Source: Thermodesulfobacteriota bacterium (GTDB taxonomy: Bacteria; Desulfobacterota; Desulfobacteria; Desulfobacterales; C00003060). Taken from it: a stretch of 64,000 bases of DNA. The notes under the pieces are model-generated. The model had not been told where the DNA came from and did no database searches. It was given only the letters and a program-made list of their open reading frames with translations. The position numbers and the translations under genes were made by a program. The stretch spans positions 160,001 to 224,000 of the forward strand of contig JAXHVD010000002.1 in the NCBI GenBank assembly GCA_034189385.1, written 5' to 3'. Of the stretch, positions 14,418 to 35,956 are shown one piece after another. Position 1 is the stretch's first letter. Each line of letters opens with the position of its first letter.

Positions 14418-14810
14418 ATGGACTACATGATCAAGAGGAAAGAGAGCGTTGAACGAAGGAAAGACAAACGGTTTGAGGTCCAGGAGGGAACCTTTGCGGT
14501 GTTCACACCCCATTTCAGCAATTGGGGGCAAGTGATAGATATAAGCAGGCATGGACTTGCCTTTCGCTATACGGGTAAGGGCCTGCCGAAAAACATGCCA
14601 TCTCAGCTAGGCATATCCATAGCCGATATTGGCTTTTATCTGGGCCGGATGCCATTCAAGGTCATTTCGGATTTTGAAATAGCGAGCGCGGGCTCTCACC
14701 GCTTGTCAATGGCAAGGCAATGTGGGGTGGAATTTGGCGAGCTGACTCCTGGTCAGATATCGCAGTTGGAATTTATTATCTCGAACTACACTCAAACTCA
14801 GGGCTATTGA
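14418..14810 (+). CDS. PilZ-domain protein (putative c-di-GMP receptor)
   Basis: RRKDKR (RxxxR) and DISRHG (DxSxxG) motifs. Confidence 0.85.
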   Translation: MDYMIKRKESVERRKDKRFEVQEGTFAVFTPHFSNWGQVIDISRHGLAFRYTGKGLPKNMPSQLGISIADIGFYLGRMPFKVISDFEIASAGSHRLSMARQCGVEFGELTPGQISQLEFIISNYTQTQGY

Positions 14811-15458: not shown

Positions 15459-16469
15459 ATGGGAATAGATAAGATTCTTCTGGATCACGGAAGTGGAGGA
15501 AAAGCATCTCATAGCCTGATTGCTGAACTCTTGATCCCCCAGTTCGAAAACCCGATCCTTGCCGCACTGAACGACGGCGCCATCTTTGACATTGAAGCAA
15601 AGCGGCTTGCCTTTTCCACCGATACCTATGTGGTCGATCCGCTATTCTTTCCTGGTGGAAACATTGGAGACCTTGCCGTTAACGGCACCGTCAATGATCT
15701 TGCCATGTGCGGGGCAACCCCCCTTTATCTGAGTGTGGGTCTGATCATTGAAGAGGGCTTTTCCACGACGGACCTGAAAAAGATACTCGAAACAATGAAA
15801 CAAGCGGCAGCCAAGGCCCATGTCCTGATTGTCACCGGCGATACAAAGGTGGTGCCGAGGGGGGTAGCAGACAAGATATTCATTAACACCTCGGGAGTTG
15901 GAGTGATCCCAGAGGAGACAACGATTTCCGGGCACAACGCCCGTCCTGGGGATAAGGTTATCATCAGCGGTACTATTGCGGACCATGGTATTACCGTCCT
16001 GACCCAAAGAGAAGGGATGGCCTTTGAGTCCCCGATCCAAAGCGATACTGCGCCTCTAAACCACCTGGTACGGGAAATGATGGCTTCAAGTGACCAGATT
16101 CACGCCTTAAGAGATCCGACCAGAGGGGGGGTCGGAACCTCGCTGAACGAGATTGCCATCCAGTCCAAGGTGGGAATAGAGATCTACGAGGAAGCCGTCC
16201 CCATGCGAGAAGAGGTTTCAGGAGTATGCGAACTTCTGGGCTTCGATCCCCTCTATATTGCCAATGAAGGAAAACTCCTGTGCTTTGTGGCACCGGACGA
16301 CGCTGAAAAGGTGTTGGCAACGATGAGAGCCAACGAATTCGGAAAAGAAGCCAGTATCATCGGCAGGGTCGTTGCCGATTCTCCGGCCAAGGTCTCTATG
16401 AAAACCCCTATTGGGGGGATCCGAATTGTGGACATGCTTGCGGGAGAACAACTCCCCCGTATTTGCTGA
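15459..16469 (+). CDS. hypE: Hydrogenase maturation carbamoyl dehydratase
   Basis: HGSGG, GTVNDLAM, TGDTKVV, RDPTRGG, C-terminal PRIC. Confidence 0.97.
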   Translation: MGIDKILLDHGSGGKASHSLIAELLIPQFENPILAALNDGAIFDIEAKRLAFSTDTYVVDPLFFPGGNIGDLAVNGTVNDLAMCGATPLYLSVGLIIEEGFSTTDLKKILETMKQAAAKAHVLIVTGDTKVVPRGVADKIFINTSGVGVIPEETTISGHNARPGDKVIISGTIADHGITVLTQREGMAFESPIQSDTAPLNHLVREMMASSDQIHALRDPTRGGVGTSLNEIAIQSKVGIEIYEEAVPMREEVSGVCELLGFDPLYIANEGKLLCFVAPDDAEKVLATMRANEFGKEASIIGRVVADSPAKVSMKTPIGGIRIVDMLAGEQLPRIC

Positions 16470-17325: not shown

Positions 17326-17997
17326 ATGAAGATACCGGTGATAAGAAAAATCTTGGAGGCGAATGATCATATAGCGGAAGAAAACCGAAAGATATTCGCT
17401 GAAAACGGGATTTTCGTTTTGAATCTCATGAGTTCGCCGGGAGCAGGTAAAACATCGCTTCTTGAAAGGACGATAGACGCCCTTCATAAGGATTTGCGAA
17501 TAGGGGTGATAGAGGGAGACGTCCAGACCAGCATTGATGCAAAGAAGATTTCAAAAAAGGGTGTTCCTACGGTCCAGATCAACACCGATGAGGCCTGTCA
17601 TTTAGATGGAAATATGATTAGGGCCACCTTGGATTCCTTTGATCTTAAATCCCTTGATCTTTTGATCATAGAAAATGTTGGCAATTTGGTCTGTCCTGCT
17701 GAATTTGATACAGGAGAAAACCATAAGGTCGTGGTCCTGAGTATCCCCGAGGGAGATGACAAGCCAGCGAAGTACCCTCTCATGTTTCATGAATCAAAGG
17801 TCCTACTGATCAACAAGATAGATCTGGTGCCTTATGTCGACTGTAGCATCAATAAGATTAAGAAATCTGCCCTGAAGATCAATCCTGACCTTGAAATATT
17901 TGAAGTCTCCTGTAAGACTCAGGAAGGCCTTTCCCAATGGTATGAGTGGATAAAGAAAAAGGTTCATGCATACACTCGAAGAAAGTCCAAGAGGTAG
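17326..17997 (+). CDS. hypB: Hydrogenase nickel-insertion GTPase
   Basis: SSPGAGKT, ACHLD, ENVGNLVCPAEF, NKID. Confidence 0.97.
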   Translation: MKIPVIRKILEANDHIAEENRKIFAENGIFVLNLMSSPGAGKTSLLERTIDALHKDLRIGVIEGDVQTSIDAKKISKKGVPTVQINTDEACHLDGNMIRATLDSFDLKSLDLLIIENVGNLVCPAEFDTGENHKVVVLSIPEGDDKPAKYPLMFHESKVLLINKIDLVPYVDCSINKIKKSALKINPDLEIFEVSCKTQEGLSQWYEWIKKKVHAYTRRKSKR

Positions 17998-20290
17998 AGC
18001 CAAGGCCACGATTCAAGGCATTGTGCAGGGTGTGGGCTTTAGGCCATTCGTATACCAACTTGCCCAGGAAAGACAATTCAAAGGGTACGTAGCCAACACG
18101 GCTTTTGGCGTCGATCTTGAGGTCGAAGGGAATCTGGCGGCTATTGAAGATTTTCTTCGAGACATTGAGGCGAAGAAGCCACCTCTGGCAGAGATTACCC
18201 TGTTTGAAACTGTTTTCCTTCCTTTGAAATCCTACCAAGAGTTTACCATTGAAGAGAGTAGATCTGATACAGAGCGTTCGGTCTTGATATCACCTGATAC
18301 AAGCATTTGTGACGACTGCCTCAGTGAATTGCTCGATCCGTCAGATAGGCGCTACAGATATCCTTTTATCAACTGCACGAACTGTGGACCCAGGTATACC
18401 ATCATTAAAGACATTCCCTATGACAGGGATAAGACCACCATGAAAGTCTTTAAGATGTGCAAGGCCTGCAATAAAGAGTACCGTGATCCCTTGAACCGAA
18501 GATTCCATGCCCAACCCAATGCATGCTGGGATTGTGGCCCCAGGGTCCGTTTATACGATCACAAGAGAGACGTCATCCCTTGCGATGACCCTATTAAGGA
18601 GACCGTCAGACTGCTCAAAGAGGGTCATATACTGGCCATCAAAGGGTTAGGCGGATTTCACCTTGCAGTGGATGCGACCCGTGACGAGGCAGTAGCGCGC
18701 TTGCGGCGAAGGAAGCATAGGGAAGAGAAACCCTTTGCCGTCATGTCTAGAGACATGGAGTCCGTTAGAAGATATGCCCATGTGACCAGGGACGAAGAGG
18801 AACTCCTCACATCGTCAAGAAGGCCTATTGTATTGTTGAGGAAAAAAGAGGGCCACGAACTCTCTCAAGGGGTATCACCGAGAAACAAGAACGTTGGGGT
18901 GATGCTTCCCTATACGCCCCTTCACTATCTGATCTTTGAGGGGGATTTTCTGGCATTGGTGATGACAAGCGGCAACATGACCGAGGAGCCCATTGTCATC
19001 GACAATGACGATGCCTTTGACAGGCTTTCATCCATTGCAGACTATGTGCTCGTACACAACAGAGACATATGTTTGAGGAGTGACGACTCTGTTTTAAGGG
19101 TTGTCGACGGTGTGGCCAGACAGATGAGGAGGTCCCGCGGTTATGTGCCTGTCCCTGTATTTCTGAAATGGGAGGCAGAGCCTGTCTTGGCTTGTGGGGC
19201 AGATCTAAAAAACACCATATGCCTCACCAAGGGGAATTGTGCCTTTTTAAGCCAACACGTAGGCGACGTGGAAAACCTGGAGACCTTAGATTTCCTAAAA
19301 TTGACTGTAGGCCATCTCAAGCGGATTCTAGAGATTGATCCTAGGATCATTGCCTATGATCTCCATCCGGGGTACCACAGTACCCATTTTGCCCTGGAGC
19401 AAAAGGATATCCAGCTCATCGGGGTTCAACATCATCATGCCCACATTGCGAGCTGCATGGCGGAAAATGGCGTGGATGAAACGGTGATAGGACTGTCCCT
19501 AGACGGCACCGGCTATGGTCTGGATGGCAGGATTTGGGGCGGAGAGGTGTTGCTGTGTAATCTGCGTGACTTCGAGAGGGTGTGCCACTTTGATGATGTC
19601 CCCATGCCCGGAGGCACCGCTGCCATCAAGGAGCCGTGGCGCATGGCGATCAGTTATCTTTATCATGCCTATGACGGGCAATTCATGGATCTTGAACTGG
19701 ATTTCTTGAAGTCATTGGATGAAAAGGAGGTCAAGGTCATTCTGAAGATGATAGAACACGGGATTAACTCTCCCTTCACATCGAGCCTGGGCAGGCTTTT
19801 TGATGGCATTGCCGCACTGATTGGTCTGAGACAGAGGGTCAAGTATGAAGGACAGGCTGCTATGGAATTGGAGATGGCGATTGAGGAGAACAGAGATTCT
19901 CTCTACCCTTACGAAATCAGCGGCCAAGACCCGAGTATGATCTTCAGGCATGAACCGATCATCAAGGGGGTGGTAAGAGATCTCCAAAGAGGATTGTCTC
20001 AGGGTAGCATCAGCGCCAAGTTTCACTATACCTTATTAGAGATGTTAAGTGAGATATGTATCAGAATCAGAGAAAAGAGGAGTCTGAACGCCGTTGCCTT
20101 AAGCGGCGGGGTCTTTCAAAATGCCTTTCTCCTCGAGGGTCTGACCAAGAGGCTCCACGATAAAGGTTTTGAAGTCTATACCCATTCTAAGGTGCCCACG
20201 AACGACGGCGGAATCTCCTTGGGCCAGGCCGTGATTGCCGATGCCCTGTCTAAAGGGGAGCCCATCTCTTCTGAAAAACTGGGTTCATGA
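17966..20290 (+). CDS. hypF: Carbamoyltransferase
   Basis: VQGVGFRPF, CxxC zinc fingers, KGLGGFHL, QHHHAH, NDGGISLGQ. Confidence 0.97.
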   Translation: MHTLEESPRGRAKATIQGIVQGVGFRPFVYQLAQERQFKGYVANTAFGVDLEVEGNLAAIEDFLRDIEAKKPPLAEITLFETVFLPLKSYQEFTIEESRSDTERSVLISPDTSICDDCLSELLDPSDRRYRYPFINCTNCGPRYTIIKDIPYDRDKTTMKVFKMCKACNKEYRDPLNRRFHAQPNACWDCGPRVRLYDHKRDVIPCDDPIKETVRLLKEGHILAIKGLGGFHLAVDATRDEAVARLRRRKHREEKPFAVMSRDMESVRRYAHVTRDEEELLTSSRRPIVLLRKKEGHELSQGVSPRNKNVGVMLPYTPLHYLIFEGDFLALVMTSGNMTEEPIVIDNDDAFDRLSSIADYVLVHNRDICLRSDDSVLRVVDGVARQMRRSRGYVPVPVFLKWEAEPVLACGADLKNTICLTKGNCAFLSQHVGDVENLETLDFLKLTVGHLKRILEIDPRIIAYDLHPGYHSTHFALEQKDIQLIGVQHHHAHIASCMAENGVDETVIGLSLDGTGYGLDGRIWGGEVLLCNLRDFERVCHFDDVPMPGGTAAIKEPWRMAISYLYHAYDGQFMDLELDFLKSLDEKEVKVILKMIEHGINSPFTSSLGRLFDGIAALIGLRQRVKYEGQAAMELEMAIEENRDSLYPYEISGQDPSMIFRHEPIIKGVVRDLQRGLSQGSISAKFHYTLLEMLSEICIRIREKRSLNAVALSGGVFQNAFLLEGLTKRLHDKGFEVYTHSKVPTNDGGISLGQAVIADALSKGEPISSEKLGS

Positions 20291-20327: not shown

Positions 20328-21608
20328 TTACTCACTCCTCTGCAGGGTCAGGCCATACTCCTTTTCTACACTGGCTGCCATCACCACGGCCTTGTCTATT
20401 TCATCATAGGCAAAGGTGTCGTTTTTCAATACCAGGTGGGGTGCTTTGTCGTCGAACTGCAAGCCAAACTTGTCGGCCTTTGAGTAAAGCTCGGTCCCTG
20501 GGAGGACATGGAGAATACTAAAGACGATCGTTGTGGGTTTGAGTTCCATCATGGCCTTGACGGACCTGCAAAACCTGAAGAAATTGTCCCCTGGAAGCCC
20601 GATAATGAGATCGGTCAATACCTCAATGCCGGCATCAAGTAAGAGTGTGATACCCCGGTTGAACTTTTCCTTTCGGTAGTAACGATTCACATTGTTTAGG
20701 GTGGTGGCGTTCACCGTTTGCGGGCCCGTTTCCACGCTCAAGACATTTGCCTCTTTCAATAGCTGAATCGTTTCTTCATCAATCAGCTCAGTCATGACCT
20801 CCACCGTGCGCAAGCCGGCACCAAAGCTATTGGCATGAGAAAACATCTGGGCCAACCTCCTGAGCCTATTCTTCTTCAGGTTAAACACCGAATCGACGAC
20901 GTGGAAACTGCGGATGTGAGGGTTGCTCATGATCAATTCGATTTCTTGCTTTACCCGTTCCTCAGGGAAAAACCTGAGCCTTGGAAAGTTCTTTCCTTCA
21001 AAGCAAAAGGCGCACTGATAAGGGCATCCGCGGAATGTCTCAAGATAGGTCACCTCATCTGTGGGTGTGAGAATTCCAGTCAAGTAAGGTGATGGGATAT
21101 CCCCCAGATCGTCTATAAGGGGCCTGTCTTCGGTGCTCACGACCCGGCCGTTTTTCCGATAGGTAATCCCCTTAATAGATGCCAGTGAATCGCCCCCGCC
21201 CACGTATGACCGCACCAACTCCTGAAAGGTAACCTCCCCTTCTCCGCGGACAATGACGTCCACTGCTGGATGCCCCATCATGTATTTCTCTGCTGCCGGT
21301 CCAACCTCAGGTCCACCGAAAATGATCTTCATTTCCGGATAGAGCTGCTTCAATAATCTGGAAAGATCCAGAATCTTATCCATATTCCAGCAATAACAGG
21401 AAAACCCCACGACATCGGGCTTTTCTTTGGAAAGATAGCAAAGGGCCTGTCGCACGTCGTGGATCTCTGCGTCAAAATCCACGATCTGAATGAGGGCGCC
21501 ACGGCGAATCAAGGGATCTTTTTCTGCGTACGCTTTCAGATATCCGGCCGCCAGAGAAAAATGATTGGACCAGTTGAATCCCATTAAGGTGACCTTAACC
21601 TTGTCCAT
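20328..21608 (-). CDS. B12-binding-domain radical SAM protein
   Basis: VGFSCYCWN, GGPEV, RGEGE, RGCPYQCAFC; start ATG 21608 (track 21629). Confidence 0.88.
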   Translation of the reverse strand: MDKVKVTLMGFNWSNHFSLAAGYLKAYAEKDPLIRRGALIQIVDFDAEIHDVRQALCYLSKEKPDVVGFSCYCWNMDKILDLSRLLKQLYPEMKIIFGGPEVGPAAEKYMMGHPAVDVIVRGEGEVTFQELVRSYVGGGDSLASIKGITYRKNGRVVSTEDRPLIDDLGDIPSPYLTGILTPTDEVTYLETFRGCPYQCAFCFEGKNFPRLRFFPEERVKQEIELIMSNPHIRSFHVVDSVFNLKKNRLRRLAQMFSHANSFGAGLRTVEVMTELIDEETIQLLKEANVLSVETGPQTVNATTLNNVNRYYRKEKFNRGITLLLDAGIEVLTDLIIGLPGDNFFRFCRSVKAMMELKPTTIVFSILHVLPGTELYSKADKFGLQFDDKAPHLVLKNDTFAYDEIDKAVVMAASVEKEYGLTLQRSE

Positions 21609-22488
21609 TGCCCCCTGTCCCACCCTCATTTAGCTCCATGAGGATCCTCATATCCTCTATATGCCTGCTCTTTGGAACGGGCATGAGGTGATCGTGTCCA
21701 AAGTGATCCAAATAGCCCCTGTCCATGCCCGGACAGACGTCGTCATAGACGCATCTCTTACAATCTTCGGATTTCTTGTACGCGCCGTAAGGCGTGCCAT
21801 ATATTTCTGACACGTGGTGTTCCATGCCTGTCATGGCGCAGAGAGGAATTCCTCTTGTCACGATCCATACCCTGTTCAAGATAGCCCCGCTGATGGCATT
21901 CTGAATGTAGGGCAGTGCCTTGGACATCTCCAGCCCACTATCGTCATAGGAGAGGATGATACGATCCACTTGATAGGGAATGAAGCTCAAGGCGATGGGG
22001 CCAACATCTTCATAATTGTGCCTTGATATGGGTATTCTCAAGCTGATGAAGGCGCTGAAAGGGGCTTGATCAAGGGTGGTGATGGTGCGCAGGTTGATGA
22101 CCCCCTGCACGGTTTCTTGCAGACTCCCACTCACCTGAGTCACATCATCGTGGATATCGGGCCGATAGTGATGGACCTTTATTTCAAAGAAGTAACATCC
22201 AGACTCTACGGTTTTGACGGCAGTATGGCCATCGGCAAAGGCCCTGGCGTTGGTCAGAAGCTTGATCCTTTTAAAACCCTGATCACGAGCAGTATCCAAG
22301 ATACTGAAAAAATCTCTCCTAAGAGTGGGCTCTCCCCCGCAGAGTTCTAAGCTGTCCACGCCGTCGTTTCGGGTCAACTGGGCCGCTATTTCCGAAAGCT
22401 CAGGATCATCGGGCCTGTTGCTCTTGCGACAGTAAAGGCAGCTATTGTTACACTGACTGCCCACATAGACCCTTTTGTATATCAGCAC
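21595..22488 (-). CDS. Radical SAM protein with C-terminal Cys cluster (HxsC-like architecture)
   Basis: CNNSCLYC, GGEPT, IPLC, CKRC-x5-CPG. Confidence 0.8.
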   Translation of the reverse strand: MLIYKRVYVGSQCNNSCLYCRKSNRPDDPELSEIAAQLTRNDGVDSLELCGGEPTLRRDFFSILDTARDQGFKRIKLLTNARAFADGHTAVKTVESGCYFFEIKVHHYRPDIHDDVTQVSGSLQETVQGVINLRTITTLDQAPFSAFISLRIPISRHNYEDVGPIALSFIPYQVDRIILSYDDSGLEMSKALPYIQNAISGAILNRVWIVTRGIPLCAMTGMEHHVSEIYGTPYGAYKKSEDCKRCVYDDVCPGMDRGYLDHFGHDHLMPVPKSRHIEDMRILMELNEGGTGGNGQG

Positions 22489-23915: not shown

Positions 23916-25001
23916 TTAGAACTGGCTGTACTTGTAATAGGCAGCACAGGTCCCCTCACTGGATACCATGCAGGGACCTACGGGATTTTCAGGCGTGCAA
24001 ACAGTTTGGAAGAGCTTGCATTCCTTGGGTGTCTTAACACCACGGAGGATGTCGCCGCATTTGCACCCGGGCGGCTCAGGGCAGTCCGGAACCTCCAGGT
24101 CGAACAGGGCATCTGCATCAAAGCTCCTATAGGCCTCTCGCAGGGCAAGTCCACTCTTCGGAATGACTCCAAGACCTCGCCACGGTGCGTCACAAGGCTC
24201 AAAGACCCGGAACAGGGTTTTCATGGCATTCACATTGCCCTCAGGTGCTACTGCCCGTCGGTATTGAATTTCCACTCGGGCTTCGCCCGCTTCTATTTGG
24301 CTTACCAGCATAGAGATTCCCTGCAAGATGTCCAGAGGTTCAAAGCCCACAACAACACAGGGGGTATGATAGTTGGCGGCCACCAGCTCATAGGAGGCCG
24401 TTCCAATAACCGTAGTCACATGCCCGGGGCAGATAAACCCGCTGACATCCAGCTCCCCTCCCGAAAGGAGGGCATCCATGGCCGGCGGAAGGAGTTTGTG
24501 AGACGAGAGGACCGAAAAGTTCTTGATCCCTTCCACTTCGGCCGCCACTACAGCAGCAGCAATGGTGGGAGCCGTTGTCTCAAATCCCACTCCGAGAAAT
24601 ACCACTTTTTTTTCGGGGTGTTGCCGGGCAATCTCCAGGGCATCCATCGTCGAATAGACCATGCGCACGTCAGCACCCAAACTCTTTTCATGTTGCAATG
24701 ACGACTTAGACCCAGGCACCCGGATCATGTCCCCGAAGGTCGTCACAATCACACCCGGTATCTGCGCGAGTTTGAGCGCTTTATCGATGTCGCGGGCAGC
24801 GGTGACGCACACCGGACAACCAGGGCCTGAGATCAGAGCCACGTGTTCAGGCAGGACCTCACGGATACCGTATTTGAAGATGGCCACCGTGTGCGTGCCG
24901 CAAACTTCCATGAACCGGGCCGGCTTTTGGGACGTGGCCTTAATACGGTCCGCCATCTTGAGGGCCACAGAGGCATCCCGGTATTCACTCAGGTATTTCA
25001 T
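23916..25001 (-). CDS. hypD: Hydrogenase maturation Fe-S protein
   Basis: MEVCGTH, GPGCPVC, GFETT, PGHV, GPCMVSSEGTCAAYY. Confidence 0.97.
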   Translation of the reverse strand: MKYLSEYRDASVALKMADRIKATSQKPARFMEVCGTHTVAIFKYGIREVLPEHVALISGPGCPVCVTAARDIDKALKLAQIPGVIVTTFGDMIRVPGSKSSLQHEKSLGADVRMVYSTMDALEIARQHPEKKVVFLGVGFETTAPTIAAAVVAAEVEGIKNFSVLSSHKLLPPAMDALLSGGELDVSGFICPGHVTTVIGTASYELVAANYHTPCVVVGFEPLDILQGISMLVSQIEAGEARVEIQYRRAVAPEGNVNAMKTLFRVFEPCDAPWRGLGVIPKSGLALREAYRSFDADALFDLEVPDCPEPPGCKCGDILRGVKTPKECKLFQTVCTPENPVGPCMVSSEGTCAAYYKYSQF

Positions 25002-25218
25002 CAATCACCCCCATCTCTTTCCAAAGCTCCAGGGTGATTCGAGCTTCCTCGGGATCAATCCTATGAAGAGCAAAACCAGCATGAATGATCACATAGTCTC
25101 CAACCTCGGGCCTTTCATCCACAATGTCCAGACGGGCATCTTTCGTGACACCAGCCAGTTCGGCGCGGATGGTGTCCCCCTCCACTTCAATCACTTTCAT
25201 CGGTGCTGCCACGCACAT
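24985..25218 (-). CDS. hypC: Hydrogenase maturation chaperone
   Basis: MCVAAP N-terminus, VGDYVIIHAGFA. Confidence 0.96.
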   Translation of the reverse strand: MCVAAPMKVIEVEGDTIRAELAGVTKDARLDIVDERPEVGDYVIIHAGFALHRIDPEEARITLELWKEMGVIDEIPE

Positions 25219-26367: not shown

Positions 26368-27603
26368 ATGAATATTACCAGAAGGCAATTTTTGCACTAC
26401 TGCACTGCCTCTGCCGCCGCCCTGGGCCTCAGCCAGATGGATCTCTTGAAGCTGGAAAAGGCCTTGGCGACACCGCAGACAGGCTGCGGCAGCCCGACAC
26501 CTTCGGTGATCTGGATGACTGGCCAGGCATGCTCCGGATGCCAGACATCGCTGCTGAACCGGGTGGTGGATACTGGTGGCACGGGCTACTATGATGCAGA
26601 TTTGTTGAATGCCCTTACCGGCGGCGCATTTCCTCAAGGGGTCCCCAGCGATCCTATTCCGGAATTGAACGTGGTAAACGACGTGGCGGATCTGCTGGTG
26701 GGCGATGCCGTTGGCACCCTGGTGCCGGCCATCACCCCAAGGGGCCTCACGTGGGCGCCATTTTCGAATGGTTACGTCACGCTGGAGTGGCTGACCACGG
26801 TGAACGCCGGCGCCGGCGACATTAATGTCCAGCACATCAAGAACATCGTCAATACCGGCGGTTTTTTTCTGTTGCTGGACGGCTCGATTCCTGTGTTAGA
26901 TGAGAATTTCTGTCTCGTCTTTGATAACGAGGTGAATGACGGTGTGGGAGGGACCAAGATCATTTCCAGCCTTCCGCTCGGGCCGATTACCCTGTCTGAT
27001 GCCCTCAGGTGGATGATACCACAGGCAGCTGCCTGCATCAGCGTGGGCACATGTTCTGCCTTTGGAGGCATCCCGTCCGGCAAGAAGAACAAGACGGGCG
27101 CCATAGGGCTTCAGCAATTCATGAGCGATAATTCGCTTTCCAAGCCGTTGATCAATGTGCCCGGCTGTCCGCCTCATCCGGACTGGATCGTCTATCCGGT
27201 GGCACAGATCCTGATTCACGGCCTGCCGTCCGTACTGGCTCCAGGTTGGCTGGACGCCTGGGGCAGGCCAGCAGCGACTTTCGGCAATCAGCCCTTCTGC
27301 TCAGCGGCAGGTTCTTCCTGTGCGAACCACCCGTCCATGGGTGCGGGCTTTGCCCAACACCTGGGTGACGACGGTTGCCAGGGGAACATGGGCTGTAAGG
27401 GGCCCATCACCTTTGGGGATTGCCCTTCCCGTCAGAAGAACGTGTTCGACGACGGCACAGTGAACAACTGGTGTTCTGCCGGCTCCCGAGGGCCCAATAT
27501 CGCCCAGGCCCGGCACGTTTGCCAGAGTTGTATTCAACCGGACTTTCCGGATCCACCAACATCCCCATTCTACGAGCCGGCATCCGGCGCTAGCCCGGTT
27601 TAA
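26368..27603 (+). CDS. [NiFe] hydrogenase small subunit, Tat-exported, group 1a (HysB)-like
   Basis: TRRQFL twin-Arg signal; CSGC, GTCSAFGGIP, PGCPPHP, GCKGP, NWC, CQSC..PDFP; no C-terminal TM anchor. Confidence 0.93.
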   Translation: MNITRRQFLHYCTASAAALGLSQMDLLKLEKALATPQTGCGSPTPSVIWMTGQACSGCQTSLLNRVVDTGGTGYYDADLLNALTGGAFPQGVPSDPIPELNVVNDVADLLVGDAVGTLVPAITPRGLTWAPFSNGYVTLEWLTTVNAGAGDINVQHIKNIVNTGGFFLLLDGSIPVLDENFCLVFDNEVNDGVGGTKIISSLPLGPITLSDALRWMIPQAAACISVGTCSAFGGIPSGKKNKTGAIGLQQFMSDNSLSKPLINVPGCPPHPDWIVYPVAQILIHGLPSVLAPGWLDAWGRPAATFGNQPFCSAAGSSCANHPSMGAGFAQHLGDDGCQGNMGCKGPITFGDCPSRQKNVFDDGTVNNWCSAGSRGPNIAQARHVCQSCIQPDFPDPPTSPFYEPASGASPV

Positions 27604-27618
27604 AGGAGGTGAAATAGC

Positions 27619-29958
27619 ATGGCAACACTAAGAATAGCACCTGTTAATAGAATCGAAGGACATATGGATGTCTCGGCCACGACCGATGTGAACAAGGTCG
27701 TCACTCACGTAGACAACGAGGTAGTCATGTTCCGCGGCCTTGAAAATGTCATGGTCAAGCGGGACCCGCGGGACGCACCCATTATCACGCCACGTACCTG
27801 AGGCGTCTGACCGATTACACATGGCTCGGCGAGCCATAAAGCGGTTGGAGAGGCCTATGGGTTCAAGGTGGACTACTCTCACTCAAACACTGGTGGCTAT
27901 CCAGGCGGACCTGCCGATTTTTGGGCAAACAACGCCAGCGGAACGCCCACCATCAACAAACTGTATGAGGATGTTCCGGCCAATGGCGTATTGCTCAGAA
28001 ACCTGGCCATGGCGTCCAACTACCTCATGTCCCACATTCTGCATTTCTACCATCTGGTAGCCTTGGATTATGTGGATGTAAACGGCACGGGGCTGATCCC
28101 GAAAGGGTTCCTCTGCCCGAACTATGACAGTAACTACTACGCCAGGGGGATCGACCCTGTCTTGCAGACAGGCGGTCTCGGAGCGCCGGCGTACACGGTC
28201 AACAATGCCCCTGTGGCGAACCCAAACGTTCCCGCAGGCGTTGCCGGCGATCTCACCCCCTACCTTGCAGGACAGTATGTGCGCGCCTTAAAGGCGCGCC
28301 GGATGGCCCATCAGCTCGGCGCCATCTTTGCGGGCAAGATGCCCCATGCCTCCTGTTTCACACCGGGGTGCGTAACGACTAAGTCGTACGATCCCACGCC
28401 GGGCGGCTCTGACGCTGCCGTGGTGAACAAGGTTCACGAGCTACTCTACGGTGGGCCCGGATTTGACGCGACCGCCCCGGGTGCACTCACCATGTCCAAC
28501 CCCCATCCGGAAAGCCTCATGGGCTTTATCGGAAAGCCCAGCGATTTCTGGAATTGGGCTGCGGACGCCAGTGGATCCACAGGCGGTTTGGGCTTTGGCT
28601 TTGCGCCCGAGTTTCTCCCGCCATGGGCAGCCGCTGGTGCGGCAACCGCAGGACCACTGGCCGGCCTCCTTGGGTCAGGGCCGTGGACACACGGCGGCAC
28701 CTTCATGTTTGATACGGTGGCCGCTGCCCACTGCTTCCCCGAGTACTTCTGGATCGGTTCCGGCTACGGCCGTTACCTGGCCTGGGGGATCTTTGAGGGG
28801 GCAGCCCCAGGGCACCCGGACGAAAGGCTCCTGACCAGGGGTCGGGTCCACACGCCGCTGGCGCCCAATCCTCCGGGGACACCCTACGCATATGACTACA
28901 AGCATCATGGTGCGGACCACTTGAAGGCCAAGGAGTTTACCACAAACTCCTGGTACTATGATCCCGCGGGGATCGACTACGGGCGGCACATGTGGAAGGG
29001 CAAGACCAAGCCGAGGTCCCGTGCGACCAAGCCCAGTGCCTACACCTTTGCCAAGACCCCGCGCTACAAAAACAATGCGAGCACGGCTGCCTGGGAGATT
29101 GCCGATCATCCCAACGCCGCCTATCTTCCCTACGAGGTGGGACCGCTTGCCAGGATGATATCCAATGCCTCTCTGCTGACCACACCGGGCGGCCCAGCCA
29201 CAGCAGGCGAAGTGGTTGCCGTGGACAGCGGGGCCTTTGGGTGTTACTACCCGGGTATCCTCGCAGATGTGGATGCCGTTCTGGCTCCCGCAGGTGTCGG
29301 AGGACCATCGCCCATTGGCGTGTTCCCGGGCAGGGGAGTCAACATGACAGCGCACATCACCTTTCTGGCCGGTGCGGGCGTTTTCTACCTGCCGCCAAAC
29401 GCCTTCTCACCACAGGTATTGGGGAACGGTTTCCACAGCGACTACATGGGCGGTGCCACGCTGGACAGGATCGCGGCCAGGACCCTGGAGACGTACTACG
29501 TGGGGGCGCAGATGCTCAACTGGTTTAACGCCCTTAACCCAGCCGCCCAGTCCAACAAGACCCTGTTCTTTGACTATAGCGGCTTCACGAACAAGACAGC
29601 GCCCAAGAAGGCGAAAGGCGCAGGCCTGACTGAGGCCCCAAGGGGCGCTCTCGGGCACTGGATCAAGATCGGCAAGCCTGACGGGACTTGGAAGGGCAAG
29701 ACGGAAAGGTACCAGATCATCACGCCCACGGCCTGGAACATCAGCCCCAAGGATGCCGTTAATGCGACAGAGAAGACCCTGGGTCTGATGGGTCCCATTG
29801 AAAGGTGCATCTGGGGTACCCCTGTGGTGGCCGAATCAGAGCCGATCGAGGTGTTGAGGATTATCCATTCCTTTGACCCGTGCTGTGCCTGTACGGTCCA
29901 TCTGATGAACCCGAAAAAGGAGAAGGTGGCCGAGGTCACACTCGAAGCCCTCATGTAG
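27619..29958 (+). CDS. [NiFe] hydrogenase large subunit, group 1a (HysA)-like, with two in-frame TGA (putative Sec) in the N-terminal Ni motif; 779 aa
   Basis: Track ORFs 27619-27801 and 27868-29958 share a frame; RIEGH, RDPRDA, R-T-TGA-G-V-TGA-P-I-T-H, SHILHFYHL, EAPRGALGHW, PTAWN, SFDPCCACTVH + 18 aa cleavable tail; AAGGAGG RBS. Confidence 0.9.
27811..27848 (+). promoter_or_regulatory. Putative bacterial SECIS hairpin
   Basis: ATGGCTC-GGC-GAGCCAT (27821-27837), G-first loop 17 nt after the second TGA and 26 nt after the first; lower stem CCGATT/GGTTGG. Confidence 0.75.
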
Positions 29959-30001
29959 GAATCCATTCCAACTGGAAGGGAGTTCCTTATAACCTTAAAA
30001 G

Positions 30002-30033
30002 AAAAGGGGCCATTTTATGGCCCCTTTTCTATT
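30002..30033 (+). terminator. Rho-independent terminator after the large subunit
   Basis: AAAAGGGGCCAT-TTT-ATGGCCCCTTTT. Confidence 0.85.
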
Positions 30034-30167
30034 TGATCTCACAAAGCTGGCGCGACCCGCCCGTTGAGTCCTCGCAAGCCATATCGCCATACCCATTGGA
30101 GACAGCCTGGTGTCCCAAGGAATGACTTACATAATTGGCGAGGTCGCCAAGAACGCCGGGGGGGAAT

Positions 30168-30447: not shown

Positions 30448-30918
30448 GTGGAGAGTGATAAGCCTATACTGGTTTTGGGCGTGGGCAACCTGCTGCTGAA
30501 AGACGAAGGGGTGGGCGTCCACGTGGCCCGAAAACTCATGGAGATGGACCTGCCGTCCCATGTGGAGGTCCTGGATGGCGGCACAGGCGGCTTTGATCTG
30601 CTGGATGAGCTCGAAGGGCGCAAAAAGGTGATCGTTGTGGATACGGCGCAGGCGGGAAAGCCTGCCGGGACCATGTATCGCATGACCACAGAGGACATTG
30701 AAAAGACGGAAAAGGCCCGCATCTCTCTCCATGAGATTGACATGACCGATCTGTTGAAGCTGGCCGACCTGTTCAAGATTGAAAAGCCAGAGATCGTGAT
30801 CATCGGCATTGAACCCAAGGACATGGAGAGCGCCAGCACGGAGCTTTCTCCGGAGATCGAGGCCCTCATTCCCAAGGTGATCGACGTTGTGCTCAAGGAA
30901 ATAGGGGTAGATGAGTAG
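30448..30918 (+). CDS. Hydrogenase maturation endopeptidase (HyaD/HybD/HycI family)
   Basis: VLGVGNLLLKDEGVG, DGGT, IVVD, SLH; AAGGAGG + GTG start. Confidence 0.93.
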   Translation: MESDKPILVLGVGNLLLKDEGVGVHVARKLMEMDLPSHVEVLDGGTGGFDLLDELEGRKKVIVVDTAQAGKPAGTMYRMTTEDIEKTEKARISLHEIDMTDLLKLADLFKIEKPEIVIIGIEPKDMESASTELSPEIEALIPKVIDVVLKEIGVDE

Positions 30919-32809: not shown

Positions 32810-35740
32810 ATGCCCATATCCAGCAACTGGAAGAAGCATCTTTCGGTTCTTTTGCTCACGTTGACCGTGTTCGTCTTTGTGGGTGGTCGTACTCTCCTAC
32901 TGGCCGACGAGAACGATGCCCCCCACCAGACCCATCTGACCCTTGCCAGGGGCCCTGGCCTTGGAACAATTTGTACGCCTTGCCACACTGCCTCTCCTGG
33001 CATCTATGAGAATATCCGTTCCCCTTTGGCAGCTGCTTGCGTCACCTGCCACAGCCCTGGCGGACCATTTGATGGAGTGAATGACAGCGCTGTGGGCGCA
33101 GTGAACAATTGGGACAACTTGGGCGATCCAGGCGATGCTGCCGATTCCCTGATCTATGCATCATTTTATCCAGTAGATGTCAAACTGAAATCAGGAAAAG
33201 AAAAATGGTGTGCCACCTGTCACGATCAATCGGCCATGGGGGCGAACGTGATGGAGGAGTTCGAGGGATACGCAGACGACGCCGGCCTCCAGAGTAAATG
33301 GAAAGGCAAACAAGCTGCTCGCCCCGTGCAGTTGTGGTCTTACGTGCCGGACGAGCTGGGTGATTATGAGCTCGGCATCAGCGGCCAGTTTATGCGCGTA
33401 AAACTCAAGTGGGACGGATCGGCCACCTATGGCTTGGTGAAAAGAAACTTTGCCGGCTCGCCTGAGGACCCTTATTTAGATCTAGGCGGTAAGGACTACT
33501 TCGGGTTTTACATGAAGGTGGAGAACAAGGGCAAGATCAAGAAGCTTAAGGTGAAGCTGAAGCTGATGGGGCAACTTACCTGGTGTACGGCCAAGTTTAA
33601 GGTGGACGCGGCAAGCGGCTTTGTGAATGACGTGTGGCATCTGGTCTTACTGCCCAGGGCGAGTTTTGACAACGACGCCTGTTTTGATGGGCTGGTAGAC
33701 AAGATGAAGCTCGTTATCCTGGAGGGAAACCCTGGTGCGCCACCTGCGGTCACCTCTGTGTACTTTGATGCCTTTGGCTGTGACTTCACCGGAGCAAACG
33801 TGATAGGCGATAATGAGACCTACGGTTACTACAAGACAGGACACAAAGTCAACTGCACCCGCTGTCACGATCCCAGCAGCAAGCATATCGATGGCAACAG
33901 GCGCCATGTCTTTGGATATATCAAGAAGAACGCAAATCCCACCAACTTCAGGTTTTATCCTGATCCTGCCAAACAGATGCAGCTTCCTTATACGGAATAT
34001 ATTCCAGGGGCAGAGGGCTCCTTTGCCCTGTGCTATGGGTGCCATTTTGAGGAAAAGCTCATGGCGAACGAACCGGCAGAAAACCTGGAGACCAATTTTA
34101 CGGATGTAGGTTTCATCGCCGACGGGGCCCCTGATAATTTGCACTTATACCATGTAGGAGGGGAGCGCTATCCTGAAATCTCTGACCTAGAGGCCATCGT
34201 GTATCACGGCACATGCGTCCTTTGCCATGACCCCCATGGGCTGTTGAACCCAGCCATGGCCCGCAGAGAGATGGGCAATTTCATCTATTTTGACCAGAAT
34301 GGATGCGAAGTTGCCAAAGAGGAGTGGCATAACCCTGATGTAAATATGGGCGGTGCCCAGACAGAGGGATACGCCACCTATGAGCCTTTATGCTCTGAAG
34401 TTTGCCATATCAACGGGGTGCCACCGAATCCCGACTGCCAAGGGACCCATCCCTATATCAACTCTATGGGGATGGATGGGTGGTATACGCGGGGGTATGA
34501 AAGAGTCCCTCACAAACCAGGAACGGAGTTTGATCTTGACTGTTTTTTCTGCCACACGGCTGGACCTTCCCATGCTACCCACATCCAGACCAATCCAAAG
34601 GGGCCAGCGCCCCTGGCCTGTGAAGACTGCCACCTTATAAACGAAGAAACCGTTTTTCAGATGGACAGGATGGTCCAACTGGATGTCTGCAACCCCTGCC
34701 ATAGCCCTGATGGTGCCTTTGATGGGCTAGATGACACGGAGTTTGGAGCAATAAACAACTGGGATAACGGCGTCTACGACTACGAGTCCGGCGGGAACAG
34801 CTTCAGGCCTGGAAAAGAGCAGTGGTGTGTGAGCTGCCATGACGATGGCACCTCCCTTTGCGACGGTGTGAGCGCTCCTGATGTGGGCATCTTCTACACC
34901 GGTGGTCACGGGAGACCCGGTGCCAGCGTGGAATGTCTGAGCTGCCATGATGCGACACGCACCCACATCGATGGAGAGGCCAGGACATACGCCTTTGACT
35001 CCCCATCCTATGATCCCGGTCTATCTGGTGTCACATACGCCTCGGGCTATCGGCTGCTGTATGTGGGTGGGAACGTCCCGCTCATGATCCCGGCTGACGT
35101 GACGATTACTTTTGACTGCACGAGTCAAGCCATCAAAGATAACGCCTTTAAGCTGTGCTTCAACTGTCATGATTCGTACAAGTTGTTCGATAACACCCCT
35201 GGAGACGGCCTGGATACCAACTTCAAGCCGAGTCTGCCCGATCCTCCAATGGGTTACTCCTATGCCTATGGCAGTGAGTGGGACAACAATCACCGCGCCC
35301 ACCTGTTGAGCTTTGCCGGGCCATACTGGGATTCAGATTGGGACACTGGCACCATTGGCGGAACGGGCGCTGACGGACGCGAGTCTATGATCACGTGCTC
35401 CTCCTGTCACAATGTCCACGGCGCTGCTGCTGCCCAGGCAGGCTGGACCAATGAGGCCATGATCAGGGACGGAAGCCTCGCAGGAAGGACCGGATATGGC
35501 TTCAGCTACGTGGTTGAGGATGTGGCGAGCGGCGGCTACCCTATGGTGACCTCCACCGGTGCCACTCAGGCAAACAGCGTTGGTGCTGTGTTCAGAAACA
35601 ATACGGACAACATGTGCGGAGGGTCCTATTGTCACGATAGTCCCACTTCACCGCCTGGCAGCAGTTATGATGCCACGGGCATTGGCTGGGGGACCTATCT
35701 AGAATACTACCGGCCCTGGCAGGACTATTTGGGAAATTAA
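32810..35740 (+). CDS. Exported multiheme cytochrome c (13 CxxCH + one Cx3CH + one Cx4CH)
   Basis: Signal peptide; heme motifs counted in translation; internal duplicated heme module. Confidence 0.92.
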   Translation: MPISSNWKKHLSVLLLTLTVFVFVGGRTLLLADENDAPHQTHLTLARGPGLGTICTPCHTASPGIYENIRSPLAAACVTCHSPGGPFDGVNDSAVGAVNNWDNLGDPGDAADSLIYASFYPVDVKLKSGKEKWCATCHDQSAMGANVMEEFEGYADDAGLQSKWKGKQAARPVQLWSYVPDELGDYELGISGQFMRVKLKWDGSATYGLVKRNFAGSPEDPYLDLGGKDYFGFYMKVENKGKIKKLKVKLKLMGQLTWCTAKFKVDAASGFVNDVWHLVLLPRASFDNDACFDGLVDKMKLVILEGNPGAPPAVTSVYFDAFGCDFTGANVIGDNETYGYYKTGHKVNCTRCHDPSSKHIDGNRRHVFGYIKKNANPTNFRFYPDPAKQMQLPYTEYIPGAEGSFALCYGCHFEEKLMANEPAENLETNFTDVGFIADGAPDNLHLYHVGGERYPEISDLEAIVYHGTCVLCHDPHGLLNPAMARREMGNFIYFDQNGCEVAKEEWHNPDVNMGGAQTEGYATYEPLCSEVCHINGVPPNPDCQGTHPYINSMGMDGWYTRGYERVPHKPGTEFDLDCFFCHTAGPSHATHIQTNPKGPAPLACEDCHLINEETVFQMDRMVQLDVCNPCHSPDGAFDGLDDTEFGAINNWDNGVYDYESGGNSFRPGKEQWCVSCHDDGTSLCDGVSAPDVGIFYTGGHGRPGASVECLSCHDATRTHIDGEARTYAFDSPSYDPGLSGVTYASGYRLLYVGGNVPLMIPADVTITFDCTSQAIKDNAFKLCFNCHDSYKLFDNTPGDGLDTNFKPSLPDPPMGYSYAYGSEWDNNHRAHLLSFAGPYWDSDWDTGTIGGTGADGRESMITCSSCHNVHGAAAAQAGWTNEAMIRDGSLAGRTGYGFSYVVEDVASGGYPMVTSTGATQANSVGAVFRNNTDNMCGGSYCHDSPTSPPGSSYDATGIGWGTYLEYYRPWQDYLGN

Positions 35741-35790: not shown

Positions 35791-35933
35791 TCACCGCAAA
35801 GGCGCAAAGAGCACAGAGTCTATTTTGCTTTATGTTTTCCGCTGAGACGGCGGAAAACATAAGAAGCCATCGCCTATGGCGAATGTCTTGGCGTTCTTTG
35901 CGTCTCAAGCGAGTGCATGCGAGCGGGCGGTGA
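35791..35933. repeat. REP-like palindromic element, family C
   Basis: TCACCGCAAAGGCGCAAAGA...TATGTTTTCCGC-TGAGACG-GCGGAAAACATA...TTCTTTGCGTC...GAGCGGGCGGTGA. Confidence 0.65.
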
Positions 35934-35956
35934 GTCTATGTCTGAAAAGAGAGTTT

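Follow-up and report, generated by a model that had tools for sequence, protein, structure and literature searches.

Two In-Frame UGA Codons in an Exported Group 1 Hydrogenase Gene Suggest a Natural Enzyme with Two N-Terminal Selenocysteine Ligands

Introduction

Within their class of H2 catalysts, [NiFeSe] hydrogenases show the highest activity and the greatest robustness to oxygen, a distinction credited to one selenium at one position. In the periplasmic Hys enzymes of D. vulgaris Hildenborough and Desulfomicrobium baculatum (5jsu, 2wpn, 1cc1, 4kl8), the single selenocysteine (Sec) occupies the first position of the C-terminal metal motif. A CXXU form of the N-terminal motif has also been reported in Group 1 (Baltazar et al., 2011, as cited in PMC13582414), and Sec has been engineered into the N-terminal motif of E. 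coli Hyd-1, where the C76U and C79U variants are described as active at 3% and 13% of the native rate, with a lowered apparent KM for H2 and almost no activity at 10% O2 (Evans et al., PNAS 2021, PMC8020662). Among Group 4 hydrogenases, sequence data have revealed a UxxU form of this motif (Takano et al., September 2026, PMC13582414), in a survey that, according to the portion of its text available to us, left out Groups 1-3 by design. We found no literature report of UxxU in Group 1 hydrogenases.

Here we describe a hydrogenase gene in which both Cys codons of the N-terminal nickel motif are UGA. The gene lies in a window of 64,000 nt, by which we mean the whole stretch of DNA that was analysed (Thermodesulfobacteriota bacterium, GCA_034189385.1, JAXHVD010000002.1:160,001-224,000, forward strand). 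The host genome is 90.4% complete, and all carriers of the two-UGA gene are metagenome-assembled genomes or metagenome contigs. The original prediction made from this DNA had regarded the arrangement as new to characterised hydrogenases. Because UxxU has already been described in Group 4, as far as the available text of PMC13582414 goes, the arrangement is new to Group 1 and to characterised enzymes of any group, but not to Group 4 sequences.

Like the UXXU Group 4 genes, in the available account of Takano et al. (2026), the window gene has UGAs at both cysteines of the N-terminal CXXC and a single downstream SECIS-like hairpin with G at the first two loop positions, in a genome with selABCD, and in both cases the enzyme is known from sequence only. 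The enzymes of that account are membrane-bound and energy-converting, whereas the window enzyme is predicted to be Tat-exported and Hys-related, with an oversized large subunit and an additional Cys in the C-terminal motif. Hys, which provides its best solved and fold relatives, shares with it a Tat signal and a C-terminal extension, and its hosts likewise use Sec; however, the window enzyme has Cys at the position of the Hys Sec, two Sec codons at the N-terminal motif instead, and a large subunit with ~290 extra residues. With the CXXU sequences of Group 1, as they are cited in PMC13582414, it would share Sec at the Ni-Fe bridging position, but those sequences hold one Sec only, whereas here the codon for the terminal ligand is UGA as well. 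In the Hyd-1 variants, Sec was put at each of these two ligand positions of a Group 1 enzyme; in contrast, they are single substitutions introduced via UAG recoding into an O2-tolerant enzyme, and the double variant was, by the available parts of that report, never made (PMC8020662).

Results and Discussion

Two UGA Codons at the N-Terminal Nickel Motif

The features of the locus are collected in Table 1. The only in-frame stops of the 779-codon frame are TGA 27799 and TGA 27808, and the region of the N-terminal Ni motif reads CGT ACC TGA GGC GTC TGA CCG ATT ACA CAT. Re-reading the sequence agrees with the original prediction that the two TGAs fall on both Cys of RxCGxCP and that the remaining frame is intact, with DPCCACTVH as its C-terminal motif. 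The role of the first of these Cys as a terminal Ni ligand is taken from the available text of PMC13582414. At the usual Sec site of the C-terminal motif the codon is TGC (29881-29883), encoding Cys755, and the HysA-type motif with Sec at its first position (DPUxxCxxH) is therefore absent from this gene; TGC or TGT stands at this site in every UxxU homolog with a readable C-terminal motif. Maturation of [NiFe] hydrogenases involves cleavage after the His of the C-terminal motif, which by extension would remove the 18-residue tail found here. Residues 760-779 of the large-subunit model have pLDDT values below 50.

Read with the standard code, the longest ORF in the large-subunit gene is 27868-29958 (696 aa, GTG start), so that a gene caller drops the N-terminal nickel motif. 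The earlier claim that gene callers cut this family is matched by the databases, where 57 of 63 close proteins start 3' of the motif. As the nickel-binding N terminus is lost in standard gene calling, the clade is invisible to hydrogenase surveys. The ORFs at 17966, 26230, 32735 and 35825 were also considered as selenoproteins and were rejected, the single TGA of each being either a real stop or located before the real start.

Table 1. Features of the hydrogenase locus, in window coordinates
Feature	Position	Strand	Basis
hypE-like maturation gene, AIR synthase-related domains	15459..16469	+	Pfam PF00586, PF02769
hypB-like nickel-insertion GTPase	17326..17997	+	Pfam PF02492
hypF carbamoyltransferase	17966..20290	+	Pfam HypF domains
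hypD	23916..25004	-	Pfam PF01924, E 5.6e-156
Hydrogenase small subunit, 411 aa, twin-arginine signal (MNITRRQFL...)	26368..27603	+	Pfam PF01058, PF14720
AGGAGG ribosome-binding site, 9 nt 5' of ATG 27619	27604..27609	+	direct sequence reading
Hydrogenase large subunit, 779 codons with read-through of two UGAs	27619..29958	+	frame read in window DNA (ATG 27619 to TAG 29956-29958); Pfam PF00374
UGA 1, codon 61, at first Cys of RxCGxCP (terminal Ni ligand)	27799..27801	+	sequence; homologs
UGA 2, codon 64, at second Cys of RxCGxCP (Ni-Fe bridging ligand)	27808..27810	+	sequence; homologs
SECIS-like hairpin, 7-bp stem AUGGCUC/GAGCCAU, loop GGC (27828-27830)	27821..27837	+	predicted fold; invariance
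C-terminal metal motif DPCCACTVH: Cys755, extra Cys756, Cys758	29875..29901	+	sequence
18-residue C-terminal extension past His761, presumed maturation endopeptidase substrate	29902..29955	+	sequence
Hydrogenase maturation endopeptidase (HycI/HybD family)	30448..30918	+	PF01750

An Oversized, Exported Group 1 Hydrogenase

The large subunit matches Pfam PF00374 with an E-value of 1.2e-83 and has the Group 1 motifs RxCGxC and DPCxxCxxH at residues 59-65 and 753-761, together with NRIEGH, which holds the conserved glutamate of RxEGH, at residues 10-15. Among solved chains, [NiFeSe] and [NiFe] enzymes of Group 1 come closest, with E-values that are alike, and the best Foldseek matches of its AF2 model (pLDDT 82.9, pTM 0.89) are [NiFeSe] hydrogenases, with target-normalised TM-scores of 0.80-0.84. 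Among NCBIfam families NF033181 gives the best score, and the protein stays below the cut-offs of the HysA-type families, in the case of NF045518 by a wide margin (235.9 vs 780 bits for NF045518, 323.2 vs 600 bits for NF033181). The closest solved relative of the small subunit is the [NiFeSe] small subunit of D. vulgaris Hildenborough (E 2.8e-50), compared with 1.8e-24 for the top non-[NiFeSe] chain, a gap of 26 orders of magnitude. The signal peptides of the window protein and of D. vulgaris HysB align, and the NWC of the small subunit aligns with the NWC of its D. vulgaris [NiFeSe] counterpart, as expected for the [NiFeSe] type; the Cys that follows the conserved medial-cluster Trp presumably gives a third [4Fe-4S].

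The PF01750 match of the adjacent endopeptidase (G000:C12:190517-190900, window 30517-30900) scores 106.6 bits, above the cut-off, and the name hypE is inferred from the hyp neighbours of that gene. No membrane or antiporter-like subunit genes lie next to the hydrogenase genes, and the enzyme does not class with the energy-converting membrane complexes of Group 4. On the basis of its predicted protein, the large subunit is an oversized Tat-exported Group 1 hydrogenase, with the Hys [NiFeSe] enzymes as its nearest solved relatives.

The UGA Pair Is Conserved under Purifying Selection

Homologs of the two-UGA gene were collected from 5 genomes and 25 further metagenome loci; 29 loci were long enough to compare and gave 24 unique stretches. 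TGA is present at both codons in 24 of these 24 stretches, from other genomes and metagenomes, and since the sequences are kin they do not count as 24 independent events. The two-TGA homologs include proteins with as little as 57% identity to the window protein, and no CxxU or UxxC form occurs among the 24. Each of the ten complete metagenome copies (756-826 codons) holds exactly these two TGAs and no further stop. Taken together, the 24 stretches and the ten complete copies exclude chance, in agreement with the earlier argument that two chance nonsense mutations on these codons are unlikely. In the genomes searched, the clade is carried by 5 of 37 species, within one Desulfobacteria genus.

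The 27 codons 5' of the UGAs are under purifying selection (pS 0.611, pN 0.085, pN/pS 0.14), and pN/pS is 0.085 over the 12 codons 3' of them; relaxed selection, which had been named in advance as grounds for doubt, is thus seen on neither side. Together with the Shine-Dalgarno site ahead of ATG 27619, this speaks for translation across the UGAs. With U read as C, 40 sequences agree without exception on R11, E13, G14, H15, C61, C64, C755, C758 and H761. Two stops within a gene of a metagenome-assembled genome could in principle mark a pseudogene, or be errors of sequencing or assembly. The probability of this appears negligible to us, as the same two codons recur in independent assemblies, from the 5 genomes as well as the 25 further metagenome loci, in frames that are otherwise intact and have low pN/pS.

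Cys-type members of the oversized clade (L022 in G028; P0014, P0040, P0045, P0051, P0055) show 53-64% identity in alignments and share the insertions of the window protein and its type of small-subunit partner. Both of their codons at the motif are TGY, however, the hairpin is missing, and the C-terminal motif is CL[AS]C where the window protein has CCAC. The anticipated alternation of TGA and TGY at the same codons is therefore found between the homologs and their Cys-type relatives, and one genome, G028, carries both the UxxU and the Cys-type forms.

In public sequencing data, three wetland libraries labelled as RNA and one DNA run from marine sediment yield contigs that span most of the gene at a likeness of at least 80%; these come mostly from relatives, the RNA-labelled libraries may hold DNA, and no conclusion about expression is drawn. 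The bin with the TGA motif is covered by these contigs, with no difference at the two TGAs among the matches listed.

A Single Invariant Hairpin Follows Both UGAs

The 17-nt hairpin downstream of the motif begins 10 nt past UGA 2 and 19 nt past UGA 1, which places its apical loop 17 nt and 26 nt from the respective codons. All 24 sequences share its codons, CAT GGC TCG GCG AGC CAT (27820-27837), without a single change (pS 0), while the flanks on either side are near saturation (pS 0.61 and 0.585), with 2-4 synonymous codons per flanking codon. The hairpin also encodes a conserved peptide, H-G-S-A-S-H, and part of its conservation therefore lies at the protein level; as judged from the alignment, this peptide constraint leaves the invariant synonymous sites unexplained. 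Compensatory changes in the stem could not be counted, as the stem never varies in the 24 sequences. The loop, GGC, opens with two G, a feature given for bacterial SECIS elements in the available text of PMC13582414. L128 has a hairpin identical to the others, yet it branches outside the main UxxU clade in the tree.

The Cys-type paralog L022 has no hairpin, and a hairpin of such geometry is present in 16 of 16 Sec-type vs 1 of 89 Cys-type downstream windows, by a criterion that was set after the hairpin had been seen and with Sec-type windows that are kin. Folding energy was discarded as SECIS evidence: the 45-nt windows past the second codon have a mean of -13.0 kcal/mol in the 16 unique Sec-type and -10.9 kcal/mol (sd 4.0) in the 89 Cys-type sequences, and 28 of the 89 equal or exceed the Sec-type mean in stability. 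Because energy does not discriminate, the case for a SECIS element rests on nucleotide invariance and hairpin geometry. A lower stem of the minimum-energy fold, in which the region of UGA 2 pairs with codons +14 to +16, was left out of the element since those codons vary freely.

The distance from the hairpin to UGA 1 bears on a different reading, in which only one UGA, most likely the second, is efficiently decoded as Sec, while the first mostly terminates or is passed by near-cognate read-through, so that full-length product would be rare or heterogeneous. The hairpin of selD in the same genome lies ~9 nt past its own UGA, comparable with the 10 nt to UGA 2, and the 19 nt from UGA 1 are about twice that spacing. 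The natural Group 1 cases cited in the available text of PMC13582414 are moreover CXXU, not UXXU. Nevertheless, UGA 1 is conserved equally with UGA 2 (24/24), the unique stretches contain neither intermediate form, and a codon that mostly terminates would make for a nearly useless gene, whereas purifying selection acts on the whole frame. Both UGAs also fall 17-26 nt from the apical loop, which fits the range of 16-37 nt that Zhang and Gladyshev reportedly use in their search model for bacterial SECIS elements. Efficient decoding of one UGA only is thus very improbable in our estimation. We know of no hydrogenase in which one hairpin has been demonstrated to serve two UGAs three codons apart.

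Selenocysteine Machinery and a Variant tRNA in One Carrier

The Sec machinery for which the original prediction had called is present in the host genome, with selA (612.6 bits), selB (370 bits), selD (388.8 bits, itself with one TGA) and a single canonical tRNA-Sec(UCA) (72.2 bits, discriminator G); selA and tRNA-Sec were also found in four of four other carrier genomes (5/5 with the host). A UGA-reading tRNA-Cys, raised earlier as a way in which Cys might be inserted, was not found in the host genome. All 18 sub-threshold hits to the tRNA-Sec model there are ordinary tRNAs (Ser, Leu, Tyr, Thr etc.), and no long tRNA-Cys was found. The concern does apply to another carrier, G011, which has a Sec-shaped tRNA of 92 nt whose anticodon is GCA and whose discriminator is U, and which bears a long extra arm (50 bits, above the Rfam tRNA-Sec threshold). 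This selC*/tRNA-ReC-like gene could place Cys at UGA. A blastn search of the host genome with this tRNA gave no match, and nothing like it was found in G006, G028 and G036, where tRNA-Trp(CCA), Ser or Leu account for the further hits to the tRNA-Sec model (E up to 1e-6). The second tRNA-Sec-model hits of the four other carriers, at 50.2 bits, are ordinary tRNA-Trp(CCA) and were rejected as candidates.

The G011 tRNA points to a rival reading for the family, with Cys at UGA: the UGAs would be recoded via SelB and SECIS, with one or both receiving Cys from selC*/tRNA-ReC, to give an all-Cys [NiFe] enzyme or a mixed population. Such tRNAs are given for ~56% of UXXU Group 4 genomes vs ~2.3% of other Sec-type genomes in the available text of PMC13582414, and here one of five carriers has one. 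Nonetheless, no variant tRNA was found in the host genome or the three carriers named above, canonical tRNA-Sec and selA occur in all five, and TGY without a hairpin would suffice for Cys, as in the Cys-type paralogs. We consequently regard Cys insertion as improbable.

A Putative Ni-Fe Site with Two Selenium Ligands

The gene very probably makes a periplasmic H2-uptake [NiFe] catalytic subunit in which both Cys of the N-terminal motif are replaced by Sec (R-T-U-G-V-U-P). A two-selenium enzyme is the most likely product because the conserved UGA pair sits at two of the four metal-binding Cys and is followed by a SECIS hairpin; these features and the Sec machinery lend genomic support to the natural enzyme with two Se ligands that was originally predicted. 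SelB with Sec-tRNA(Sec) would bind the single hairpin (27821-27837) and deliver Sec first at UGA 61 and then, three codons on, at UGA 64. The Ni-Fe(CN)2CO centre would be built by the Hyp proteins encoded nearby, the adjacent endopeptidase would trim the 18-residue C-terminal tail, and the large subunit would be exported along with the small subunit via the Tat signal of the latter. The resulting Ni site would be Se2S2, with Sec61 and Cys755 as terminal ligands, the latter at the usual Sec position, and Sec64 and Cys758 as bridging ligands to Fe, and electrons would pass through the small-subunit FeS clusters to periplasmic multihaem cytochromes.

More speculatively, and with less than even confidence, we suggest that, within the lineage from which the classical [NiFeSe] enzymes arose, one clade took selenium to both N-terminal ligands and kept sulfur at the proton-relay Cys by the conserved glutamate. 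This would give a Ni(Se)(mu-Se)(S)(mu-S)Fe site that is catalytically distinctive, with one hairpin directing two Sec insertions three codons apart. One possibility is a very high affinity for H2, suited to scavenging in anoxic sediments, by analogy with E. coli Hyd-1, in which each of the single replacements by Sec lowered the KM for H2 according to the available text of PMC8020662.

Judged from its genes, the UxxU Group 1 clade is real, and the two-selenium form is most likely one not yet described for exported Group 1 hydrogenases. Natural selenium at two other ligands, one of them bridging Ni and Fe, with sulfur at the classical site, would offer a ready-made test of the role of each chalcogen, for which the counterparts so far are, by the available parts of PMC8020662, engineered single variants only. 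The gene would likewise be a clean test case for one bacterial SECIS hairpin serving two UGAs 9 nt apart.

Of 15 complete UxxU copies, 14 have the CCAC form of the C-terminal motif, compared with none of five Cys-type copies, and its extra Cys could have co-evolved as a redox partner of the selenols.

Two in-frame TGA codons in a hydrogenase large-subunit gene

The original prediction described a hydrogenase large-subunit gene with TGA at two positions of its N-terminal nickel motif and cysteine at the usual Sec site, and the window sequence agrees with this description. From its ATG, preceded by an AGGAGG, to a terminal TAG, the frame spans 779 codons and the only in-frame stops are TGA codons 61 and 64 (UGA 1 and UGA 2), with the surrounding sequence reading R-T-U-G-V-U-P-I-T-H (hereafter UxxU). 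The C-terminal motif, D-P-C-C-A-C-T-V-H, has TGC at the Sec position of classical periplasmic [NiFeSe] hydrogenases (Hys). Under the standard code, the longest open reading frame starts at a GTG and encodes 696 aa that lack the N-terminal metal motif.

A protein search returned 63 close relatives (E 1.2e-118 or better), of which 57 start downstream of the N-terminal motif. This is what gene callers make at a TGA, some of these proteins also being cut by contig ends, and the suspicion that automated annotation hides the family was thus well founded.

Features of the hydrogenase locus and neighbouring genes (window coordinates)
Feature	Position	Strand	Remark
PAS histidine kinase and LuxR-type response regulator pair	5785-8957	+	first of two in tandem
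PAS histidine kinase and LuxR-type response regulator pair	9597-12562	+	second of two in tandem
Third response regulator	12853-13623
Second HycI-family endopeptidase	14776-15252	-	65.4 bits; adjoins hypE-like gene
Radical SAM genes (two)	20328-21629, 21595-22488	-	one with B12-binding domain; between hypF and hypD, inside maturation cluster
Hydrogenase small subunit	26368-27603		directly upstream of large subunit; twin-arginine signal
AGGAGG	27604-27609		upstream of ATG 27619
Hydrogenase large subunit	27619-29958	+	stop codon TAG at 29956-29958
UGA 1	27799-27801		codon 61
UGA 2	27808-27810		codon 64
Hairpin	27821-27837		candidate recoding signal
Longest standard-code frame	27868-29958		GTG start
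C-terminal motif	29875-29901
Cys756	29884-29886		extra cysteine
Inverted repeat and T run	29985-30035		between large-subunit stop and endopeptidase gene
HycI/HybD-family endopeptidase	30448-30918		downstream of large subunit
Multihaem c-type cytochrome	32810-35740	+	976 aa; downstream of hydrogenase
Multihaem c-type cytochrome	35876-38254	+	792 aa; downstream of hydrogenase
Further kinase	41088-41921
Multihaem c-type cytochrome	42995-45319	+	774 aa; downstream of hydrogenase

Both TGA codons are conserved and flanked by purifying selection

TGA occupies both codons in four further species of the same genus (genomes G006, G011, G028 and G036; protein identity 66-70%). A double-TGA DNA pattern matched 31 loci; one chance match (L127) was dropped and one locus with too short an upstream stretch (L114) was not used, and the remaining 29 loci gave 24 unique stretches. 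Additional gene copies came from scans of genome and metagenome contigs. TGA was present at both codons in 24/24 unique stretches, none of which had a CxxU or UxxC form, and all ten complete metagenome reading frames (756-826 codons) contained exactly two TGAs and ended in TAA or TAG. Homologs therefore keep TGA at both sites, as anticipated, and the six protein relatives that retain the conserved N-terminus all have Cys at both motif positions.

Selection was assessed by pairwise comparison of the 24 unique sequences, with codons numbered from UGA 1. The 27 upstream codons (-27 to -1) gave a pS of 0.611 and a pN of 0.085 (pN/pS 0.14), and the 12 downstream codons (+13 to +24) a pS of 0.585 and a pN of 0.050 (pN/pS 0.085), which indicates that purifying selection acts on the segment discarded by standard annotation as strongly as on the rest of the gene, and in the same frame. 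Relaxed selection, which would have spoken against the original prediction, is thus not what we observe on either side of the TGAs. In the six hairpin codons (+7 to +12) both pS and pN were 0, leaving no ratio to compute.

An invariant hairpin follows the second TGA

A perfect 7-bp hairpin (AUGGCUC-GGC-GAGCCAU) begins 10 nt after UGA 2. Its codons, CAT GGC TCG GCG AGC CAT, are identical in 24/24 sequences, whereas almost all other conserved residues within 25 codons use 2-4 synonymous codons each. The GTC between the UGAs is invariant too, and two further codons almost so: ACC before UGA 1 and the ACA that precedes the hairpin. As the stem never varies, compensatory base changes cannot be counted. 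Folding energy on its own did not separate Sec-type from Cys-type genes. A search for a perfect stem of at least 7 bp that starts 5-16 nt downstream of the second codon and closes a 3-8-nt loop beginning with GG recovered 16/16 unique Sec-type windows versus 1/89 Cys-type windows, on a definition set after the hairpin had been seen and with Sec-type windows that are kin. In selD of this genome, a selenoprotein gene in its own right, a 7-bp hairpin whose loop is G-rich follows the UGA by approximately 9 nt. UGA 2 therefore sits at the locally usual distance, with UGA 1 another 9 nt upstream. SelB with Sec-tRNA(Sec) would use a single hairpin for both UGAs.

Selenocysteine machinery of the carrier genomes

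The window's genome is a metagenome-assembled genome (MAG) of 4.13 Mb in 64 contigs, 90.4% complete. The Sec genes expected from the original prediction were found in it: selA, selB and selD, each above its curated cut-off, and one tRNA-Sec with a UCA anticodon and discriminator G. Eighteen weaker matches to the tRNA-Sec model were ordinary tRNAs such as Ser, Leu, Tyr and Thr. All four other carrier genomes have selA and tRNA-Sec.

Besides its tRNA-Sec, G011 encodes another Sec-like tRNA (L181:281-372, minus strand; G011:C4, within 43800-44500; 92 nt). Its anticodon is GCA, its discriminator base U and its extra arm long, and it scores 50 bits, above the Rfam tRNA-Sec threshold. It resembles selC*/tRNA-ReC genes, which, according to the accessible text of Takano et al. 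(2026; PMC13582414), are overrepresented among genomes that encode UXXU Group 4 hydrogenases. No such tRNA was found in the window's genome, G006, G028 or G036. Ordinary 77-nt tRNA-Trp(CCA) genes in G036, G011, G028 and G006 (L177-L180) reached 50.2 bits against the Rfam tRNA-Sec model (gathering score 47) and are easily miscounted as tRNA-Sec genes; the assembly that contains the window yielded no tRNA-Trp.

The enzyme is an oversized relative of [NiFeSe] hydrogenases

The read-through protein matches Pfam PF00374 with an E value of 1.2e-83. Its top NCBIfam models are those of [NiFeSe] large subunits, NF033181 (323.2 bits, cut-off 600) and NF045518 HysA (235.9 bits, cut-off 780), and scores under both cut-offs make it a relative of these families rather than a member. 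A sequence search of solved structures retrieved Group 1 [NiFe] and [NiFeSe] chains alike (E near 1e-47). For the small subunit, the best match among solved structures was its counterpart in the D. vulgaris Hildenborough [NiFeSe] hydrogenase (E 2.8e-50, compared with 1.8e-24 for the best non-[NiFeSe] chain). An AlphaFold2 model of the large subunit from a 40-sequence alignment was confident (mean pLDDT 82.9, pTM 0.89), and its top six Foldseek matches were the [NiFeSe] hydrogenases of Dm. baculatum and D. vulgaris, with target-normalised TM-scores of 0.80-0.84 compared with 0.67-0.78 for standard [NiFe] enzymes. The protein is approximately 290 residues longer than these enzymes, and residues ~86-116, 252-360 and 515-612 are unmatched in the HMMER alignment to solved chains.

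The two structural genes are flanked by hypE-like, hypB, hypF and hypD genes, and no gene for a cytochrome b or another membrane partner adjoins them. The three very large multihaem cytochromes gave weak Pfam matches only (paired CXXCH, cytochrome c7, MtrC/MtrF-like domain) and may be periplasmic or extracellular electron acceptors of the hydrogenase. Following the large-subunit gene, a GC-rich inverted repeat and T run (GGGGCCATTTTATGGCCCC TTTTC) looks like an intrinsic terminator or attenuator.

Predicted active site and comparison with known enzymes

The sequence data show that both UGAs and the hairpin are conserved, that the genome has a full Sec system and that the hydrogenase operon, accompanied by maturation genes, is intact. 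The double TGA is real and, as far as sequence data allow, supports the proposed natural enzyme with two Sec residues. In such an enzyme, Sec61 and Cys755 would be terminal and Sec64 and Cys758 bridging nickel ligands, the neighbouring endopeptidase would cleave an 18-residue tail, and the dimer would leave by the Tat route and pass electrons to periplasmic cytochromes c. Glutamate E13 of the RxEGH motif is invariant, so the proton-relay pair would consist of Glu and a sulfur ligand, whereas the pair in Hys uses selenium.

Double-Sec N-terminal motifs in Group 4 and single N-terminal Sec in Group 1 have already been published. The accessible text of PMC13582414 places CXXU, UXXC and UXXU N-terminal motifs, known from sequence data, in Group 4 only and gives C-terminal UXXC for naturally occurring Sec forms in Groups 1 and 3, apart from N-terminal CXXU in two sequences of Group 1 and one of Group 3 (Baltazar et al., 2011, as cited therein). 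Prokaryotic selenoproteome reviews, in their accessible parts, mention only UxxC and CxxU forms of hydrogenase subunits (PMC13188914, PMC9312934). Full-text searches covering the main text of openly available articles turned up no description of UxxU in any Group 1 hydrogenase. The present double motif belongs to the lineage nearest the classical [NiFeSe] enzymes, and their usual Sec position is here occupied by Cys, either retained or regained.

According to the accessible text of PMC8020662, engineered E. coli Hyd-1 variants with a single N-terminal Sec (C76U and C79U) are active at 3% and 13% of the native rate, respectively, with a lower KM for H2, and show hardly any activity at 10% O2; Hyd-1 with selenium at the classical position is extremely O2-tolerant and transfers protons more slowly. 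One reading is that the UxxU clade may tune H2 affinity rather than O2 tolerance.

Family tree and distribution

Maximum-likelihood analysis of 40 sequences placed the 20 rows of the oversized clade on one branch (SH-aLRT 100), within which 14 UxxU sequences, all with C-terminal D-x-C-C-A-C, form one clade (support 98). The sister of this clade is a Cys-type protein (P0014), followed by three more Cys-type sequences. A further UxxU locus, L128 (R-V-U-A-V-U, C-terminal DPCIAC), lies apart near the base, beside Cys-type P0055, so that the tree needs two changes of state. Its hairpin is identical to that of the other UxxU genes, which points either to a single origin with later reversions to Cys or to a transferred N-terminal segment. 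The extra Cys756, after the first C-terminal ligand, gives CCAC in place of CLAC or CIAC; it occurs in 14 of 15 complete UxxU copies versus none of five Cys-type copies, and has co-evolved with the UxxU state.

Searches of one genome from each of 24 other families of the order, and of 400 further genomes drawn evenly across the phylum (E 1e-60), did not find the gene; within the genus, it occurs in 5 of 37 species genomes. The species-representative collection contained only four loci above 50% identity, all in Desulfobacteria/Desulfobacterales MAGs, three of them UxxU and one the Cys paralog of G028. This genome has both forms, a UxxU gene (L018, G028:C96; 70% identity to the window protein) and a Cys-type gene (L022, G028:C1; 54%), a pair that resembles the Sec/Cys isoenzyme pairs of other Sec-using hydrogen metabolisers.
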